This document shows, one piece after another, positions 11,929-47,316 of a stretch of DNA of 64,000 nucleotides. The position numbers were made by a program, and so were the translations under genes. A model generated the notes under the pieces. It did not search any database. It saw nothing but the letters and a program-made list of their open reading frames with translations, and was not told where the DNA came from. Position 1 is the stretch's first letter. Each line of letters begins with the position of its first letter. This DNA comes from Spirochaetia bacterium (lineage in GTDB: Bacteria > Spirochaetota > Spirochaetia > SZUA-6 > Bin103). The stretch lies in contig OZ241863.1 of NCBI GenBank assembly GCA_965203055.1, positions 2,688,001 to 2,752,000 of the forward strand, written 5' to 3'.

Positions 11929-13527
11929 TCACTCGCCCCCGCCTACCTGCACCCGAAGCTGCTGGCCGGCCAGGGTCTGGCGCGCCCAGAACAGGTTCTG
12001 GCTCGCGTCGTTGCCGCCCGCCGCCAGGTTCGCGGTGCCGGTCGCGTCGGTGCCGCCACTCGGCGCCGCCGTAAAGGTCACGCTCGGGGCGGTCACGTAG
12101 CCGCTCCCCCCGTTGGTGATCCTCACCGACCGGATGACGTATTCAAAGACCGCGGTGCCGACCGCCGTGGTGCCGCCGCTCGGCGCCGCCGAAAAGGAGA
12201 CGGTGGGGGCCGAGGTGTAGCCGCTGCCGGGGTTGGTGACCGTCGCCGTCGGGACGGCGTAGGCCATCACCGCGGTGGCGGTCGCCCCGCCGCCGCCGCC
12301 GCCCGAAAAGGAGACGGTGGGCGCCGAGGTGTAGCCGCTCCCCGCGGTCCCGGCCGTCACCGAGCCGACCCCGTAGGCCATCACCGCGGTGCCGGTCGCC
12401 GCGGTGCCGGACGCCGGCGTCGAAAAGGTCACGGTGGGGGCCGAGGTGTAGCCGCTCCCCCGGTTGGTCACCGTCACCGATCCTGCCCCGTAGACCACGC
12501 TGGCGGTGGCGGTCGCCCCGCTGCCGCCGCCGCCGGAAAAGGAGACGGTGGGCGCCGAGGTGTAGTCACTCCCGCCGTTCGTGACCATCGCCGACGCTAC
12601 GCCGCTTTGCAGCACCGCGGCGCCCCTTGCCTCCCAACCAACGCCGCCCGGCGAGGCTGAAAAGGTCACGGTTGGGGTAGACGTGTAGCCGCTCCCCGGG
12701 TCGTGATCGTCACTCCATCTACCCTGGAGTTCAGCATCACCGCGGTGCCGGCCGCACCGCCGCCGCCGCCGGTAAAGGAGATGGTGGGCGCCTCCGCGTA
12801 GCCGGCGCCGGCGGTCGTGACGTTCACCGAACCGACGCCGAAGCCGCCCGCTACGGCGCCGATTGCCTGCGTCCCGCCGGCCGGCGGCGCCGACAAGGTC
12901 ACGCTGGGCGCCGAAGTGTAGCCACTGCCCCGCTCGGTAATCGTGACCGACTCGACGGTGTCCGAGGCGCCCGACTGATCCGGGGCGGTGAGCACCAGCA
13001 CGATCGCGCCCGCGCTCACTTCGGCGCCAACCGTCCACTGCGCGCCGCTGAGGTCGCCCGCGAAGGCCGGCGCGGTCGCCGTGCTCGTGAACGGCAGCTC
13101 GTTGCCGCCAATCGACACGCTCACCTTTTCGCCCTCGACGCCGGTGAGCCCGTCCCAGGCGAACGGCTCGGAGCGGATCGTCAAGGCGCTCGGGTCCGCT
13201 GCGGCGGGCAGCGGCAGCGCCGATGACCAGGCATCCTCCCCGAGGGGCCAGCTCTTCGTGGCCGGCGCCGGAGTCGGGGCTGGCGGAGTCGGGGCCGGCG
13301 TGGTCGGCGACCCGCCATTGCCGCCGGCGCCGGTACCGCCGGTTGCTGGCGGCCGGGCCGCCTGCTGGCACGCCAGCAGGGCGACGCCGGCGACTACCGC
13401 CAGCGCCGGGAGCGCGGCCTTGCAGAATCCTCCTTTGACCTTCGCCGGCGGAAGCTGCCGAGGTCGGCCCGAACTCTTCGGTCTATGGGGGGGGGGTAAG
13501 CGCTAGCTTGTTGTTGTTACCGGTCAC
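11929..13527 (-). pseudogene. GSGYT-repeat surface lipoprotein, copy 1 (8 repeats), interrupted at a poly-C tract and by a 1-nt deletion at about 12701
   Basis: GGAGG-N7-GTG start at 13527; lipobox [13 protein letters not shown] in the -1 frame; Pro/Thr linker; colinear with 41500-43494 including the [10 protein letters not shown] tail. Confidence 0.8.
13487..13496 (-). repeat. C10 homopolymer in the 5' coding region of the lipoprotein gene
   Basis: Ten consecutive G on the plus strand; C9 or C12 would restore the frame into the signal peptide. Confidence 0.85.
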
Positions 13528-38660: not shown

Positions 38661-39844
38661 GGCCGCGTCGTGTGGCCGCGGCGGCGCTGCCACCGGTCGC
38701 CGCCGTATACCAGTACGCCATGCCGGGCAGCCGGGCTGCCGCGGGCGCAGAACCAGTCCAGCCCATCGTAGAGCGCGCCGCTGAGCGTGAGTCCCGCCTT
38801 CATCTCCACCGGCAGCAGGCGCGCGCCGTCGTCGATCACCAGATCGACTTCGTGACCGCTGCGGTCGCGCCAGAAATAGAGCGGCGAGCGGACGCCCCGG
38901 TGGGTGAACGCCTTGAGGTATTCGCCCACCACGAAGGTCTCGAATATCGCTCCGCGATTGGCGTGCAGCGCGAGCTGCTCGGGTTCCCGGATGCGCAGCA
39001 GGTTGCACAACAGGCCGGTGTCCAGAAAGTAGAGCTTGGGACTCTTGATCACGCGCTTGGCGAAGTTGCGGTGATGCGGCGGCAGCAGGTGCACCACGAA
39101 CAGCGCCTGCAGCACGGAGAGCCAGGCGCCGGCCGTGGTGTGCGAGACGCCGCAGTCGGAACCGAGCGATGACAGATTCAGAAGCTGCCCGCTGCGGCCC
39201 GCGCAGAGCAGCGCGAAGCGGCGGAAGGTGTCCAGGTCGCCCACGCCGCCAAGCTCGCGCACGTCGCGTTCCACGTAGGTAGTGTAGTAGGAACCGAGCC
39301 AGTCCGCGGCGTCGAGCCGGCGGTCGTGGATGCGCGGGAACAGCCCCTGGTAGAGGACGCCATGCAGATCGAGTCCGGCCGGCGCCGGCGGGTCGCCGGC
39401 AACCGGTTCATGCGGGCGCCATGGGTCGCCGCCCGGCGCCCCGGTCAGCTCCGACAAGCCGAGCGGCAGCAGCACGCACACCGCGGCCCGCCCGGCCAGC
39501 GTCTGGCTTACCGAGCGGGTGAGGGGGAGCTGCTGCGAGCCGGTAAGAACGTAACGGCCGGGTGTCGGGTCCTCGTCCACCAGTGCCTGGACGTAGGACA
39601 GGAGCTCCGGCGCCCGCTGCACTTCGTCCAGAATCACCCCCGAACGGTGCGCCGCCAGCAATCCGCGCGGGTCGTCCAGCGCATGATCCCTGGTGTCCGG
39701 CTCCTCCAGGTTCAGATAGGCATGGGCGGCGAACACCGACTTGGCGAGCGTCGTCTTGCCCGATTGACGCGGCCCGGTCAGAAACAGCGCCGGGAACTGG
39801 CCGGCCAACCGCCGCAGCCGGGCCTCGAGGGTGCGCCGAAACAT
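38642..39844 (-). CDS. AAA_14 ATPase with DUF4143 domain
   Basis: GPRQSGKT, ILDEVQ, LTGS, LAGR, KSPKLYFLDTGL, FWRDRSGHEVDLVI..PVEMK. Confidence 0.92.
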   Translation of the reverse strand: MFRRTLEARLRRLAGQFPALFLTGPRQSGKTTLAKSVFAAHAYLNLEEPDTRDHALDDPRGLLAAHRSGVILDEVQRAPELLSYVQALVDEDPTPGRYVLTGSQQLPLTRSVSQTLAGRAAVCVLLPLGLSELTGAPGGDPWRPHEPVAGDPPAPAGLDLHGVLYQGLFPRIHDRRLDAADWLGSYYTTYVERDVRELGGVGDLDTFRRFALLCAGRSGQLLNLSSLGSDCGVSHTTAGAWLSVLQALFVVHLLPPHHRNFAKRVIKSPKLYFLDTGLLCNLLRIREPEQLALHANRGAIFETFVVGEYLKAFTHRGVRSPLYFWRDRSGHEVDLVIDDGARLLPVEMKAGLTLSGALYDGLDWFCARGSPAARHGVLVYGGDRWQRRRGHTTRPWHACV

Positions 39845-39850
39845 GCGCTC

Positions 39851-39900
39851 AAGGTACCGCAGCGCAGCCTGAACGGCAAATTGAAAGCACCCCTTTCAAT
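39851..39900 (-). promoter_or_regulatory. Sigma70-type promoter (probably leaderless) with adjacent inverted repeat
   Basis: TTGCCG(39879-39874)-N17-TACCTT(39856-39851)-N6-ATG; inverted repeat ATTGAAAG-N5-CTTTCAAT at 39880-39900. Confidence 0.62.
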
Positions 39901-40012
39901 CAGCCAACCGACTCCGGGCCGGTGGACGGCTGCGGCGCGCAGGGCGTGGATCCGGTTCGCCAAGCGACCGGTCCCGGCGAGCAGCGCTGCCGGCGTCCCG
40001 GACAGGTCGATT

Positions 40013-40350
40013 TCAAGCGCGCCGACGGAGCATGAAGACTACCGACTGCGCTTCGAGGAGGTTGCGCGGCCATTCGAGTCCACGCGCCCGAGCTTCCTCT
40101 ATCAACTGGTCGAGAAACCCCAACGCGTGCTCATACAGAGTCGCCTCGTCCGCATTATCGTGCGGCTTGGGGTGGTGCGTAAAATCGTATGCCGTCGCGA
40201 ACATTCTCACCCCGAACGGAGGGTAATGTTCGATCGAAATCCTTATGAGCAGGGCGGCGATCAGCCCCATGCGCCCTCCTGCTCCCATGAGATTCCTTAT
40301 TCACGCGGATTCGCAGATTCACCAGGGAATTGCCGTTCTCCTCGCCTGCC
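40013..40350 (-). pseudogene. Lower-GC gene fragment of unknown family
   Basis: Globular-looking translation YPPFG..AYDF..P..ADEATLYEHALGFLDQLIEEARARGL..RNLLEAQSVV; no clean 5' end. Confidence 0.4.
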
Positions 40351-40359
40351 ACTGCGGAA

Positions 40360-41302
40360 GCCGGCGCCGGTGCTGGACCCGGAGGCGCGGCGGGAGCTGG
40401 TGGAGCAGGCGTCCGGCAAGAGCAGCCGGGAGGTGATGCAGTTGCTGGCCGAGGTAGACCCGGAGCTGGCGGCGGCGGCGGATCGGGTGCGGCCTCTGGG
40501 CGGCGGGCGTTGGGAACTCAAGGCGGTGATCGACGATGAGTGCCGGCGCGGCTTGGAGCGGCTGAAGGGCCTCCTGTCCCACGTCGATCCGCACCTGACG
40601 ATGGGGCAGCTCATGGGGCGGCTGGTGCGGGAAGGGCTCGACCGTCACGACCCGGCCCGGCCGCCGCGCGGGCGGCGCGCGGCGCCGGCCAAAGGGGCCG
40701 AGCAAACTTCGGCGCCGAAGACGCAGGCGGCCTCGGCTCGCGGCGCCGCCTCGGCAGCGAAGCAAGAGGCCGGCGCGGACAGCGCCGCTCCTTCGGCGGC
40801 GAAGGTATCGGCTCAGGCGGCGGCGCAGCCGGGAGACGAAGCCGCTTCGCCGCTGCAGGCGAACCGCGGCCCGGACCGCCCGGACACTTCGGCGGTGAAA
40901 CCGGCAGTGAAACCGGCGGGCGACACCACTTCGGCGCCGAAGACGCGGCGCCCCGGCCGGCAGGCTGCACCGGCGGGCGCGGCGCGGGCTGCGCGGCCGG
41001 CGCGGACCGAAACTTCGGCAGCGAAGGCCGGCGGCGTGACCGGCCGCGCCATCCCGGCGGCGGTCAAGCGCGAGGTCTGGCGGCGCGACCGGGGCCGCTG
41101 CCGCTACGTGGACCGCACCAGCGGGCGCCGTTGCGGCTCCCAACACCTGCTGCAGATCGATCACGTCGTGCCGTATGCCCGCGGCGGCGCCGCCGAGCCG
41201 AACAATCTCCGCCTGCTGTGCGCCGCCCATCACCGCTACCGCCACGCCGGCGCCCGATTCGGGCGCCCCGGCGAGGATCGTCAGGCGCCCGTAGACCGGT
41301 GA
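40360..41302 (+). pseudogene. HNH endonuclease with zinc-finger Cys pairs, 5'-truncated
   Basis: RAIPAAVKREVWRRDRGRC..RCGS..LQIDHVVPYARGG..NNLRLLCAAHH; Ala/Pro-rich linker; GC-rich coding style begins abruptly near 40360. Confidence 0.8.
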
Positions 41303-41499
41303 TCAAGATCGCCGAGAAACGTCATCCTGCGCTAGGACTTGGGCTTGGCCGCCAAGCGGTCTGACGCTCACCTACATTTTGGGAAATGCGCCGTGAGTGA
41401 GTGCGGGCTGGCTGATGGGGTCGATGGTCAGCTTGGCGGGCGCATGGTACCATGCGCCCGGCGCGAGGCCAGCAGCCGGCCGGCGCGGAGGGAATCTTA

Positions 41500-43494
41500 T
41501 TGTTGTTGAGTAAAGCGTTGAAGTTATCGCTGTTGATGGCCGCCGGCATCGCCGCGCTGATGGCGTGCGAGCCGGCGGCGCGGCCGCCCGCCATGGCCGC
41601 CGCCCCAGCCCAAGGGGGAGGGGAGCCTCCGAGCGAGCCGACGCCAACTCCGCAGCCGGCAGAGAAGAGGGAGAAGAGCTGGACGATCGGGACGGCTGAC
41701 TTTGGCAATGATGAACTGAACCTGGTGGGCGAAGTGTCCAACCGTGCATCGTTTGACTGGGAGCCGATCACCGCCGGCGCCGAAGTGAGCGTTTCGATTG
41801 GCGGGCATGACCTGCCGTTCACCAGCACGGCGGCAAAGCCGGTCTTCGCGTCCGATATCTCCGGCGCCGAGTGGAAGGTTGCCGCGGAAGTCCGTGCGGG
41901 AGCGATCGTGCTCGTGCTCACGGCCCCGGATCAGTCGGGCGGCGGCGCTGTCGAGTTGGTCACGATCACGAACCCGGGCAGCGGCTACACCTCGCCCCCG
42001 ACCGTCAGCTTTTCCGCCCCGCCGCCCGGCGGCGCCGCGGCAACCGGCACCGCGGTGGGGCCCGATCGCGTCGCCTCCGTGACGGTCGACACCGCCGGCA
42101 GCGGCTACACGTCCCTCCCGACCGTCAGCTTTTCCGCCCCGCCATCCGGCGGCGCCACGGCAACCGGCACCGCGGCGGCAGGGCCCGGCAGCGTCGCTTC
42201 CGTGGACGTTGTCACCCCCGGCAGCGGCTACACCTCGGTCCCAACCGTCACCTTCTCGGCAGCGCCTGCAGGCGGCACCACGGCAACCGGCACCGCGGTG
42301 GCAGGGCCCGGCAGCGTCGCTTCCGTGGACGTTGTCACCCCCGGCAGCGGCTACACGTCCCTCCCGACCGTCAGCTTTTCCGCCCCGCCGTCCGGCGGCG
42401 CCACGGCAACCGGCACCGCGGTGGCAGGGCCCGGCAGCGTCGCTTCCGTGGACGTTGTCACCGCCGGCAGCGGCTACACCTCGGTCCCAACCGTCACCTT
42501 CTCGGCAGCGCCTGCAGGCGGCACCACGGCAACCGGCACCGTGGTGGGGAACGGTCGAGTCCATTCGGTGACGGTCACGAACGGGGGTACCGGCTACGTC
42601 CCTAGCACGGCTACCGTTACGATTTCGGCGCCGCCCTCCGGCGGCACCAGGGCAATGGCCCAAGTGATAGCCCTAGGCGTCGGTGTCATCCAGGGAGTGG
42701 AGGTCAGGAACCGGGGGAGCGGCTACACCTCGGTCCCGACCGTTACGTTTGGCGCACCGTCCAGCGGCACCACGGCCACCGGCACCGCGGCGTTGCGCTA
42801 CGGTGTCGGGTTGGTAACGATCGCCACCGCCGGCGGCGGCTACACCTCGGTCCCAACCGTCACCTTTTCGGCAGCGCCGAGCGGCGGCACCACGGCCGCC
42901 GGCACCGCGGTGCTGCAATACGGTGTCGGGTCGGTAGACGTCACCGGCGGCGGGAGCGGCTACACGTCGGCCCCGACCGTTACCTTTTCGGCCCCGCCAA
43001 GCGGCACCACGGCGACCGGCACCGCGGCGTTGCGCTACGGCGTCGGGTCGGTAACGATCGCCACCGCCGGCGGCGGCTACACCTCGGTCCCAACCGTCAC
43101 CTTTTCGGCAGCGCCGAGCGGCGGCACCACGGCCGCCGGCACCGCGGTGTTGCAATACGGTGTCGGGTCGGTAGACGTCACCGGCGGCGGGAGCGGCTAC
43201 ACGTCGGCCCCGACCGTTACCTTTTCGGCCCCGCCAAGCGGCGGCGGCGCCACCACCGCAGCCGGCACCGCGGTGTTGCACTCCACCGTCACGGCAGTGC
43301 GGATCACGAACCAGGGGAGCGGCTACGCGTCGGCCCCAACCGTTACGCTTTCCGCGCCGACCGGCGGGAGCGGCACCACGGCGACCGCCGAGGCAACGCT
43401 GCGTCCACCCGGCAACGACCAGTACCAAAACCTGTATTGGGCGCGCCATACGCTGAACGGCAAGAAGCTTCTGGTTAAGATCGTGAGCAACTGA
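41500..43494 (+). CDS. GSGYT-repeat surface lipoprotein, copy 2 (12 repeats, intact)
   Basis: GGAGG-N8-TTG; signal peptide and lipobox AGIAALMA-C; Pro-rich linker; 12 units of about 40 aa, VxxVTVxxxGSGYTSxPTVTFSAPPxGGxTATGTA. Confidence 0.85.
   Translation: MLLSKALKLSLLMAAGIAALMACEPAARPPAMAAAPAQGGGEPPSEPTPTPQPAEKREKSWTIGTADFGNDELNLVGEVSNRASFDWEPITAGAEVSVSIGGHDLPFTSTAAKPVFASDISGAEWKVAAEVRAGAIVLVLTAPDQSGGGAVELVTITNPGSGYTSPPTVSFSAPPPGGAAATGTAVGPDRVASVTVDTAGSGYTSLPTVSFSAPPSGGATATGTAAAGPGSVASVDVVTPGSGYTSVPTVTFSAAPAGGTTATGTAVAGPGSVASVDVVTPGSGYTSLPTVSFSAPPSGGATATGTAVAGPGSVASVDVVTAGSGYTSVPTVTFSAAPAGGTTATGTVVGNGRVHSVTVTNGGTGYVPSTATVTISAPPSGGTRAMAQVIALGVGVIQGVEVRNRGSGYTSVPTVTFGAPSSGTTATGTAALRYGVGLVTIATAGGGYTSVPTVTFSAAPSGGTTAAGTAVLQYGVGSVDVTGGGSGYTSAPTVTFSAPPSGTTATGTAALRYGVGSVTIATAGGGYTSVPTVTFSAAPSGGTTAAGTAVLQYGVGSVDVTGGGSGYTSAPTVTFSAPPSGGGATTAAGTAVLHSTVTAVRITNQGSGYASAPTVTLSAPTGGSGTTATAEATLRPPGNDQYQNLYWARHTLNGKKLLVKIVSN
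42090..42540 (+). repeat. Near-identical coding tandem repeat, 123-nt unit with 246-nt higher-order period
   Basis: GGGCCCGGCAGCGTCGCTTCCGTGGACGTTGTCACC starts at 42181, 42304 and 42427; A/B variants alternate. Confidence 0.92.
42781..43243 (+). repeat. Near-identical 237-nt tandem duplication (two protein repeats per unit)
   Basis: GGCACCGCGGCGTTGCGCTACGG starts at 42781 and 43018; the following sequence is almost identical. Confidence 0.92.
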
Positions 43495-45656: not shown

Positions 45657-45750
45657 CGCATTCTCCGGGTCGTGGTTTCAATGATTAGGGCGCTTGCCCG
45701 GCCCGGTGGTCAAGCCTCGGGGAGTCCGCCATCATGGCGCTGAAGACGCG

Positions 45751-47316
45751 ATGATCGACCAACCGATGATCGAACGGCGCTTCAGCGACCTCTGGGGGCA
45801 GTTGCAGGGCAAGAAGCCGCATCTGCCGCACTTCCTGGCGGAGATACACCTGCAGGGGATACGCGGGATCGACGACCTGCGCGTGGTGCTGGACTATCCG
45901 GTCAGCGTGATCGCCGGCGGCAACGCCAGCGGCAAGTCGACCGTGCTGTTCGCGGCGGCGTGCGCCTATCGGGTGCCGGGCGCCGGGGTCAGGGACTTCG
46001 TGCCGTCCACGCTGTTTCCCGACTACCGCCCGCGGCACGGCGGACGCGAGGACGAGAAGCGCGCGGTCACCATCGAGTTCGACTACGCCACCCCGGACGG
46101 CCGCCGTTCCATGCGCTGGCGGCGCGCCAAAGGCTGGAACCGCAGCTTCCTGGGGCGCAAGAACGCCAGCCAGCCGGAGCGTCCGGTCTACCTGCGGACG
46201 CTCAGCAACCTCAGCAACCCGTCGGAGGCGCGCGGCGTGCTCAGCATGTCGCAGCGGAGCTCGCCGGCGCAGGAGAGGCCGCTGACCGCCTCGCAGATCG
46301 AGTTCGCGCAACAGCTTCTGCCGTTCCGCTACGCCGAGGTGGTCGATCTGTCCAGCGGCAACAAGAACCTGCTGTTTGCCGCCCAGGAGCGCGGCCCGGC
46401 CTACTCGGAGCTGCACATGGCGGCCGGCGAGCGCGCCATCCTGCGGTTGGCGCAGGAGATCGCGCAGCGCAGCGGGGTGCTGGTGTTGATCGACGAAGTG
46501 GAGGCCGGGCTGCACCCCTGGGTCCAGCAACTGCTGATGCTGCAGTTGCAACAGCTCGCGCTGCGCAACGACCTGCAGATCATCGTCACCACCCACAGCC
46601 CGGTGGTGCTGGACTCGGTGCCGGCCAACGGGCGCATCTTCCTGGACCGCGGCGAGAGCGGGCGGGTAACGGTGCAGCAGGCGCACGTCGACGTGGTGCA
46701 GGACGCGCTGTACGGCCGCTCGCGGGAGGTGCTCAACCTGCTGTGCGAGGACGACGCGGCGCAGGCGGTGGTGCAGGGGGTGCTGGATCACGTGGTGCCG
46801 AAGCGGCGCATCAGAGGGGATTCGGTGCGCATTGGCCGCGATACCGGCGCCGACGAGTTTCCCGCGCACGCCGCGGCGTTCCGCAAGTTCGGGCAGATCG
46901 CCAACTTCGTCTTCATCCTCGACGGCGATCAGCGCGGCAGCGGCATCGACGAGCGCATCCGGGAGCAGGCCGGACGCGCGGTGCCGACCCTGTTCCTGCC
47001 CGGCCGCGAGGCGCCGGAGGCGTGGGTATGGGAACGGCTGCGGCAGGCCGCCGGGCCGATGGCCGTCGGGCTGAGCGTCGATCCGGGGGAGCTGGCCAGC
47101 CGGCTGCACCGGCTCGACGCGGTGTACGACACCGCCTCCGACCGGCCCGCGGCGATCGCCAAGGCGAAGCTGCGCGGCCTGGGCGAGGCCCTGCGCCGGG
47201 AGGCGGCGGACATCTGCCGCACCGTCGCCCGGCTGGAAGCGGAACGTCCCGAAAGCGATCTGCAGCCGTTCGCGGAGGGGCTCGAGACCGTGCTGCTGCA
47301 ATGGCGCGCCGGATGA
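45751..47316 (+). CDS. ABC-type (AAA_15/21) ATPase fused to a TOPRIM-like domain; OLD/PARIS-like putative defence nuclease
   Basis: GGNASGKS, MAAGE, VLIDEVEAGLHP, TTHSP; C-terminal LLCEDDAA and ILDGD. Confidence 0.8.
   Translation: MIDQPMIERRFSDLWGQLQGKKPHLPHFLAEIHLQGIRGIDDLRVVLDYPVSVIAGGNASGKSTVLFAAACAYRVPGAGVRDFVPSTLFPDYRPRHGGREDEKRAVTIEFDYATPDGRRSMRWRRAKGWNRSFLGRKNASQPERPVYLRTLSNLSNPSEARGVLSMSQRSSPAQERPLTASQIEFAQQLLPFRYAEVVDLSSGNKNLLFAAQERGPAYSELHMAAGERAILRLAQEIAQRSGVLVLIDEVEAGLHPWVQQLLMLQLQQLALRNDLQIIVTTHSPVVLDSVPANGRIFLDRGESGRVTVQQAHVDVVQDALYGRSREVLNLLCEDDAAQAVVQGVLDHVVPKRRIRGDSVRIGRDTGADEFPAHAAAFRKFGQIANFVFILDGDQRGSGIDERIREQAGRAVPTLFLPGREAPEAWVWERLRQAAGPMAVGLSVDPGELASRLHRLDAVYDTASDRPAAIAKAKLRGLGEALRREAADICRTVARLEAERPESDLQPFAEGLETVLLQWRAG

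Follow-up and report, generated by a model that had tools for sequence, protein, structure and literature searches.

How would a lipoprotein built largely of short tandem repeats arrange its chain if those repeats fall into two halves that differ in their linkers? The question is raised by a gene on the plus strand at positions 41452..43494 of a 64,000-nucleotide (nt) window, the whole stretch of DNA analysed here, which covers positions 2,688,001 to 2,752,000 of contig OZ241863.1 (assembly GCA_965203055.1) of a Spirochaetia bacterium. The genome to which the window belongs (G000) is a single contig of 4.56 Mb with a G+C content of 68.75 %. Bacterial surface repeat stalks are usually read as rows of beads, in which a change of length means one bead more or less. 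The original prediction for this locus, made from the sequence alone, proposed a chain that runs out through six repeats and back through another six. Having followed it up by counting repeats across the gene family, comparing their conservation and predicting structures, we hold with moderate confidence that the encoded protein is a stalk with a lipid anchor whose chain is zipped into a hairpin.

A repeat lipoprotein and its family

The open reading frame (ORF) encodes 680 amino acids, its coordinates including the stop codon. An alternative TTG start at 41500, which the original prediction had used, leaves the core of the signal peptide unchanged, and the orthologous ORF in L009 begins at the equivalent TTG. 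The signal peptide (41452..41568) carries the leader KALKLSLLMAAGIAALMAC and ends in the lipobox LMAC at 41557-41568, the Cys to be lipidated being residue 39; a positive n-region, a hydrophobic core and a lipobox, as in the lipoprotein criterion that we applied ([LVI][ASTVI][GAS]C), were all found in the target, and the same leader is present in most paralogues. Behind it follow a Pro-rich tether, AAPAQGGGEPPSEPTPTPQPAEKREK (41569..41673), which includes GGGGGAGGGGAG at 41614-41625, and a non-repetitive N-domain of about 93 amino acids (residues 75-167, 41674..41952). The remainder is repeat array, closed by the conserved C tail LRPPGNDQYQNLYWARHTLNGKKLLVKIVSN at 43399..43491. Splitting the array at its G-x-G-Y motif gave 12 units of 39-43 amino acids each, and a hidden Markov model (HMM) of the repeat core recovered the same 12 units with no remainder. 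Their consensus reads V-x-V-T-x-x-G-S-G-Y-T-S-x-P-T-V-T-F-S-A-x-P-S-G-G-T-T-A-T-G-T-A.

Two linker types divide the array. Repeats 1-6, the putative outbound arm (41953..42690, with repeat starts at 41953, 42073, 42196, 42319, 42442 and 42562), have G/P-rich linkers behind repeats 1-5 (GPDRV, AGPGSV three times and GNGRV), while repeats 7-12, the putative return arm (42691..43398, with starts at 42691, 42808, 42928, 43045, 43165 and 43291), have linkers of an L-x-Y-G-V type behind repeats 7-11 (LRYGV, LQYGV, LRYGV, LQYGV and LHSTV). Between them, behind repeat 6, lies the junction ALGVGVI (42670..42690), which is unique in the array. Each arm also carries a two-unit DNA duplication of its own, detected by Tandem Repeats Finder as a 246-nt period at 41973..42549 in the outbound arm (2.4 copies, 90 % matches) and a 237-nt period at 42715..43242 in the return arm (2.2 copies, 95 % matches). 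Every element of this layout that had been described beforehand, from lipobox, tether and non-repetitive segment to the 12 repeats and the tail, together with the two linker types, the single mid-array junction and both duplications, was present in the target. The duplications make repeat 2 equal to 4, repeat 3 equal to 5 and repeat 8 equal to 10, with 9 resembling 11, and in an antiparallel pairing of the arms like would consequently meet like. This pattern is consistent with a hairpin but equally with a parallel register, and does not discriminate between the two.

The non-repetitive parts had been noted as conserved in one paralogue; they proved to be kept in far more. A phmmer search of G000 identified the N-domain in 32 ORFs, the C tail in 36 and both in 27, the target itself scoring best. 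Five of the 41 related genomes searched contained the N-domain, with 32, 29, 26, 22 and 5 matches per genome, and a word-indexed homologue search with the N-domain returned 14 proteins only. One related genome holds an orthologue of the target that is 99 % identical and also has 12 repeats, and eight 12-repeat members could be aligned with the target from end to end. Pfam gave no family for the target at E ≤ 1 except a sub-threshold match to DUF3370, NCBIfam gave none, and a sequence search of PDB chains with the target found nothing below an E value of 0.5. The lipoprotein family is new. One of its branches, a six-repeat subfamily comprising the gene at G000 C1:1533854-1535152 and its relatives (P0002-P0011), has a conserved Y-Y-x-S-G-C-C in repeat 2, and two adjacent Cys are unusual in a family that is otherwise Cys-free.

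Repeat number and conservation along the array

If an outbound repeat has to find a returning one, the number of repeats in a member should be even. We counted repeats by iterating the repeat-core HMM on all members and retaining ORFs with both N-domain and C tail, which, after removal of L078 as a duplicate of a gene in L076, left 96 intact members from five genomes. The count was even in 92 of these 96, which as paralogues share ancestry and do not amount to 96 independent trials. Even classes range from 4 to 14 repeats (4 in 22 members, 6 in 14, 8 in 19, 10 in six, 12 in 13 and 14 in 18), and even members account for 27 of 27 in G000, 24 of 27 in G011, 20 of 20 in G010, 17 of 17 in G012 and 4 of 5 in G015. 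Five members entered as having four repeats gave three HMM matches and a gap of 77-86 amino acids, which by eye holds a degenerate repeat. Database representatives with both end parts were even in 27 of 30 cases, some of these representatives being genes already counted in the five genomes. Kinship of the members notwithstanding, six size classes that are all even would hardly arise by chance.

The repeats might equally be whole beads in a head-to-tail rod with the N- and C-terminal parts held apart, even counts then reflecting shared ancestry and slippage by two units. The alternation of the target's repeats at the DNA level (ABAB) and the two-unit length of both duplications fit such a rod, as does the stability of repeat number between orthologues, which was unchanged in 18 of 20 reciprocal-best pairs between G000 and G011 and differed in the other two, so that parity rests on few independent events. 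The spread of members over six classes, all of them even, is less readily explained in this way, and where alignment at the level of repeats revealed single-repeat changes these had occurred one per arm. Compared with a 12-repeat paralogue, a 10-repeat one is short of one repeat in each arm; an 8-repeat paralogue is short of two per arm, the central pair included, and a 14-repeat paralogue has two extra copies at the centre.

Conservation along the array points in the same direction as the counts. By repeat position, mean pairwise identity is lowest at the central pair in all size classes (at repeat 2 of 4, 3 of 6, 4/5 of 8, 5 of 10, 7 of 12 and 7 of 14), the exception being the eight-repeat members of G010 and G012, which show a flat profile. 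In the 12-repeat group of the target, identity is 0.78 in the N-domain and 0.70-0.74 in repeats 1-5, falls to 0.62 in repeat 6 and 0.57 in repeat 7, and rises again to 0.70-0.81 in repeats 8-12 and 0.82 in the tail. Such a profile fits a conserved base with a variable distal tip, and would be unexpected for equivalent beads or for a necklace in which sequence neighbours pair.

Other attempts to locate arms and tip along the array gave less. A classifier of arm identity that had learned from the three units at either end of other members' arrays switched exactly after repeat 6 in the target; elsewhere the split lay near the middle and was fuzzy in most members, apart from a few in which it was as exact as in the target. 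An HMM of the tip pair of 4-repeat members, run along longer members, gave nearly flat scores and did not locate the tip.

Predicted pairing of the two arms

The original prediction had looked to an AlphaFold contact map for anti-diagonal contacts between the arms. This succeeded for a short relative and failed for the target. As a stand-in for the target we took the smallest complete paralogue, a four-repeat protein of 307 residues (G000 C1:4122246-4123442), with an alignment of 28 four-repeat members from four genomes and a protein library (42 % mean column identity), and AlphaFold modelled it with a predicted local distance difference test (pLDDT) score of 88.8. We read the topology of the model indirectly, from the spans of its structural matches and from a complex prediction in which the chain was cut at its centre and the halves, residues 1-188 and 189-296, were offered to ESMFold2 as separate partners. 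The halves docked with interface scores (ipSAE) of 0.73, 0.73 and 0.68 in three runs, compared with 0.00 for the best of three controls; the mark used for calibration is reached by 116 of 157 solved complexes and by 2 of 215 mismatched pairs, and with the custom alignment used here serves as a rough guide only. The runs shared at least 97 % of about 500 contacts, with partner pLDDT of at least 87. We know of no similar complex, and recall of a solved structure by the predictor is therefore unlikely, although the docking expresses the confidence of a model and is not a measurement.

The contacts of lowest predicted error join the N-domain (residues 5-9 and 46-49) to the C-terminal strand (287-291), and repeat 1 to repeat 4 at residues 102-104 with 262-264 and 134-137 with 234-240. 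They predict a closed base, in which the tail forms a helix and a final strand that pairs with strands of the beta-structured N-domain as part of its sheet, and an anti-diagonal pairing of the first repeat with the last. Both features had been anticipated, the first as a base domain completed by the C-terminal tail and the second as a pairing of repeat i with repeat 13-i, and in the paralogue both are borne out by prediction programs. Structural matches of the model, of 58-91 aligned residues and root mean square deviation (rmsd) 2.1-6.0 Å (2.1-2.8 Å for the top five), span residues 1 to about 295, and for matches so small this puts the last strand into a single compact domain with the N-domain.

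A plain head-to-tail rod is contradicted by the docking of the split halves, whose contacts include those between N-domain and C-terminal strand, and fits poorly with matches to single small domains that span nearly the whole model. The predicted template modelling (pTM) score of the paralogue model leaves it some room, and together with the points on ancestry and slippage makes us regard a rod as quite unlikely. Modules of two successive repeats, taken as the sole explanation, were rejected because of the contacts predicted between repeats 1 and 4 and because the array has only one central junction.

Both repeat and fold recall phage virion proteins; the original prediction had likened the GSGYT-type repeats to those of phage structural proteins and large surface proteins. 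The repeat matches PHROG families of head closure, tail fibre, baseplate wedge and virion structural proteins at E values of 3e-47 to 1e-10, and PHROG 460, 5342, 701 and 19630 match the repeat of the target at 3.3e-47 to 8.8e-40 in 4-9 stretches. The closest folds of the paralogue model are phage tail, neck and sheath proteins, all weak matches; domain I of T4 gp18 aligns with model residues 101-267, from repeat 1 to repeat 4, at Z 5.8 and rmsd 2.7 Å over 72 residues, which is likewise weak. Foldseek against PDB gave no match at E ≤ 0.001 and the ESM Atlas no usable match, and phage protein models in BFVD matched the paralogue model at E values down to 5e-11. These BFVD matches, the PHROG families and the 2521 representative proteins that match the repeat at E ≤ 0.001, many of them 1000-4500 amino acids long, would suit an oligomer of the kind seen in phage fibres, in which repeats of two or three chains pair and the hairpin of the monomer is an artefact of folding a single chain. 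Such an assembly would give no reason for even counts, for a central junction or for docking of N-domain and C tail within one chain, and we think it very unlikely as the explanation; a phage-like oligomer could also exist together with a hairpin rather than alone.

In the zipped hairpin that we favour, the N-domain and the C tail would co-fold as one base domain behind the lipobox Cys and the tether, and the chain would run out through repeats 1-6, turn at ALGVGVI and come back through repeats 7-12. Each repeat would be a three-stranded half unit, with strands one and three linking repeat i to repeat 13-i in a six-stranded barrel-like rung, and the target would carry six such rungs stacked on the base. 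The two linker types would be the outbound and returning connectors between rungs, and the central pair, repeats 6 and 7, would form the distal tip and its most variable part, both chain ends remaining at the membrane-proximal base. An even repeat number would be required because complete pairing uses one outbound and one returning repeat. Anatomy, even counts, conservation profile and tracts are seen in the sequences themselves, and closure of the base and pairing of repeats 1 and 4 are predicted in the paralogue. From that pairing we infer that the same arrangement extends through all 12 repeats of the target. The stalk would be exposed at the cell surface, and its tip may contact a ligand.

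The three checks suggested with the original prediction, on structure, homologues and fold, largely agreed with it. Several results, besides the shared ancestry of the members, weigh against this reading. AlphaFold applied to the target itself (606 amino acids, nine aligned 12-repeat sequences) gave an unusable model, with pLDDT 44.7 and pTM 0.50, and pTM of the good four-repeat model was just 0.57. Pairing was seen for the four-repeat paralogue only, whose N-domain is about 58 % identical to that of the target, and by prediction programs only. All fold matches have Z below 8, in the range of common arrangements, so that no homology is shown. Short (GGGGSG) and long (AAPSGG) loops were unassociated between presumed partners (phi 0.02), with larger values at shifted registers, a result that gives no support either way. 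Odd members exist, namely L036 with nine repeats, L039 with 11, and L102 and one L034 ORF with one each, the one-repeat forms being without an in-frame lipobox; odd database proteins are P0015 (7), P0020 (5) and P0025 (5). Changes of length can also be lopsided. The orthologue L029 went from 12 to 10 repeats by losing outbound repeats 4 and 5, from the outbound arm only, and L036 lacks three return-arm repeats of its near-identical G000 orthologue; L039 has lost one outbound and two return repeats. The claim that length changes must be matched in both arms is not supported in that form, and the expectation of even and arm-balanced counts survives in its first half: among the family sequences an even number is strongly favoured, and arm-for-arm matching is not strict. 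In L029 either pairing is promiscuous and the repeats re-zip, or repeat number is constrained by something else; unbalanced copies in general may re-zip in a shifted register, or some may be impaired or mis-assembled.

L029 would sit comfortably with a closed loop of beads, in which the ends are tied (N-domain to C tail, repeat 1 to repeat 12) and inner neighbours pair (2 with 3, 4 with 5) as in a necklace. This arrangement likewise requires an even number, its beads would be gained or lost whole both in the two-unit duplications and in the loss of two adjacent repeats from L029, and the tip pair of the four-repeat model, repeats 2 and 3, are sequence neighbours, so that neighbour pairing is possible. 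It would, however, lead us to expect linkers that alternate with a period of two, whereas the target has one type behind repeats 1-5, another behind 7-11 and a single unique junction, and it predicts neither that conservation should be lowest at the centre whatever the size class nor that repeats should be lost one per arm. We consider such a necklace unlikely.

As a way of building stalks, the zipped hairpin would belong with the surface proteins already known to vary in length, and its closest functional analogue is found in the streptococcal antigen I/II adhesins. PMC3178794, which cites Larson et al. 2010 and Brady et al. 2010, describes for SspB, SpaP and AspA how an N-terminal repeat region joins with a second one further along the chain, the resulting stalk holding out what lies between the two. 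The likeness is one of topology, two associating repeat regions forming a stalk that leads away from the anchor. In antigen I/II an alpha-helix of A repeats wraps with a polyproline helix of P repeats, the wall anchor is at the C terminus and a large V domain sits at the tip, whereas the target has homologous beta repeats in predicted barrel-like rungs, a lipid anchor at the N terminus and the central repeat pair only at its tip; the Ala-rich and Pro-rich repeats and the V and C domains were not recognised in the target, which has no Pfam match to them.

In periscope proteins (SasG, Rib and the SHIRT arrays of Sgo_0707), length variation has been proposed (Whelan et al. 2021, PMC8201768) to set the projection from the cell. 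Tandem near-identical units of high DNA identity are common to these and the target, whose duplications show 90 % and 95 % matches. Periscope repeat numbers vary between genes and strains; the target and its orthologue both have 12, and 2 of 20 reciprocal-best orthologue pairs of the family differ. The periscope units are whole domains set head to tail with a binding domain at the free end; here the halves of the four-repeat paralogue are predicted to interlock, and a rung would be formed by two distant half units, length would change by pairs and both ends would lie at the base.

A nested chain path as such has a precedent in the T4 tail sheath protein gp18, of which PMC3004832 describes domain I as inserted into domain II, II into III, and III between the termini that form domain IV, domain I being a six-stranded barrel. 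The out-and-back path and the fold of domain I, the best though weak match of the repeat region (Z 5.8), are points of likeness; the gp18 domains are mutually unrelated and fixed in number, whereas the repeats nested here are homologous and number 4 to 14. In PHROG 460 ('head closure Hc2'), 5342 ('tail fiber'), 701 and 19630 (both 'virion structural protein') the resemblance lies in a G-S-G-Y repeat of about 40 amino acids and is clear, while the lipobox, N-domain and C tail belong to the lipoprotein family of 5 of the 41 related genomes. No account of homologous half units arrayed in tandem and zipped antiparallel turned up in the open-access literature searched.

Possible switching, setting and significance

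Many members of the family carry homopolymer tracts where these could affect expression. In 11 G000 paralogues a G/C tract of 8-16 lies between lipobox and tether; within the same flanks, G8, G11 and G14 leave the signal peptide in frame and G10, found in three paralogues, does not, and a G16 tract in another sequence context also puts it out of frame. A further 11 paralogues have a tract of 10-20 upstream of the gene, so that tract-bearing paralogues make up 22 of the 32 N-domain ORFs of G000, about two thirds. Of the 49 runs of eight or more G/C in G000, 22 lie in or at most 300 nt from family ORFs. None of the 15 tract-bearing orthologue pairs between G000 and G011 agreed in tract length, although for any single tract an error of homopolymer length in the assembly is possible. 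From these patterns, expression of about two thirds of the G000 paralogues looks switchable via poly-G/C tracts. In the target, GGGGGAGGGGAG is an interrupted version of the poly-G tract at the same spot, no uninterrupted G/C tract of eight or more is present, and its orthologue has no tract; the target would on this basis be a constitutive member.

The variable lipoproteins of mycoplasmas are switched by poly-G or poly-A tracts, and the tpr genes of Treponema are linked to poly-G. The tracts of the paralogues, which lie either where the signal peptide meets the mature protein or upstream of the gene and vary in length among orthologues, resemble these systems. The target differs in having no intact tract, and its organism in appearing in sponge and marine metagenome runs and not being a known pathogen. 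Away from the family, other G/C runs of 21-26 bases lie at G000 C1: 205565, 1667450, 1891480, 3986337 and elsewhere, and two of the very long runs share the flank GAAAACCCGACC or GGAAACCCGACC; shared flanks of this kind suggest other switchable loci.

A second family member lies within the window at about 11932-13502 on the minus strand and belongs to the 14-repeat subfamily. It is broken across two frames after the second repeat, six repeats and the tail following in the other frame, and has a C10 tract upstream at about 13487-13496. It is either a pseudogene or the product of an assembly error.

Within about 4 kb on each side, the genes flanking the target encode HNH, AAA_14/DUF4143, PhyH and AAA_21/AAA_15 proteins, and no phage structural genes were found among them. 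We rejected a prophage structural gene as an identity for the target on account of its lipobox, the scattered positions of its paralogues and these non-phage neighbours. In the flanking plus-strand intervals 39326-41302 and 45694-47316, the HNH endonuclease has an N-terminal part that is long and of low complexity, and the AAA_21/AAA_15 ATPase is of a type known in abortive-infection and OLD-like systems.

Sequencing runs labelled as sponge or as marine metagenome contain words of the target gene (20 rows from eight studies, with no RNA run among those listed), and in contigs of four runs from four studies the unique centre of the gene, at about 42483-42865, shows 0-5 differences. Coverage of the gene by the contigs of those runs is broken into pieces of 75-383 nt interspersed with joints derived from paralogues, which makes repeat-number variants and arm-matched changes unreadable from the public runs.

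Considered as a whole, the family would supply stalks of two to seven rungs with different tips, many of them switchable and the target constitutive. A wider reading, to which we give somewhat less than even weight, is that phage-virion-derived half units have been zipped into a self-nested hairpin whose length is quantised in pairs, and that about 30 such genes of two to seven rungs, many switched by poly-G/C, form a combinatorial repertoire of length, tip and on-off state that faces the host or phages. If the hairpin is correct, it would be a second solution to building a variable stalk beside the row of beads: a half-unit array read out and back, with repeat number tied to parity and the hypervariable tip placed furthest from both chain ends. 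The repeat numbers of such genes would then have to be interpreted differently. Protein designers would gain a naturally extensible nested scaffold, and the 307-residue four-repeat member would offer a compact system for asking how near-identical repeats avoid mispairing. As for the organism, the family would mark an uncultured and apparently sponge-associated spirochaete as the holder of a large switchable repertoire of surface genes, of a kind known mainly from pathogens.

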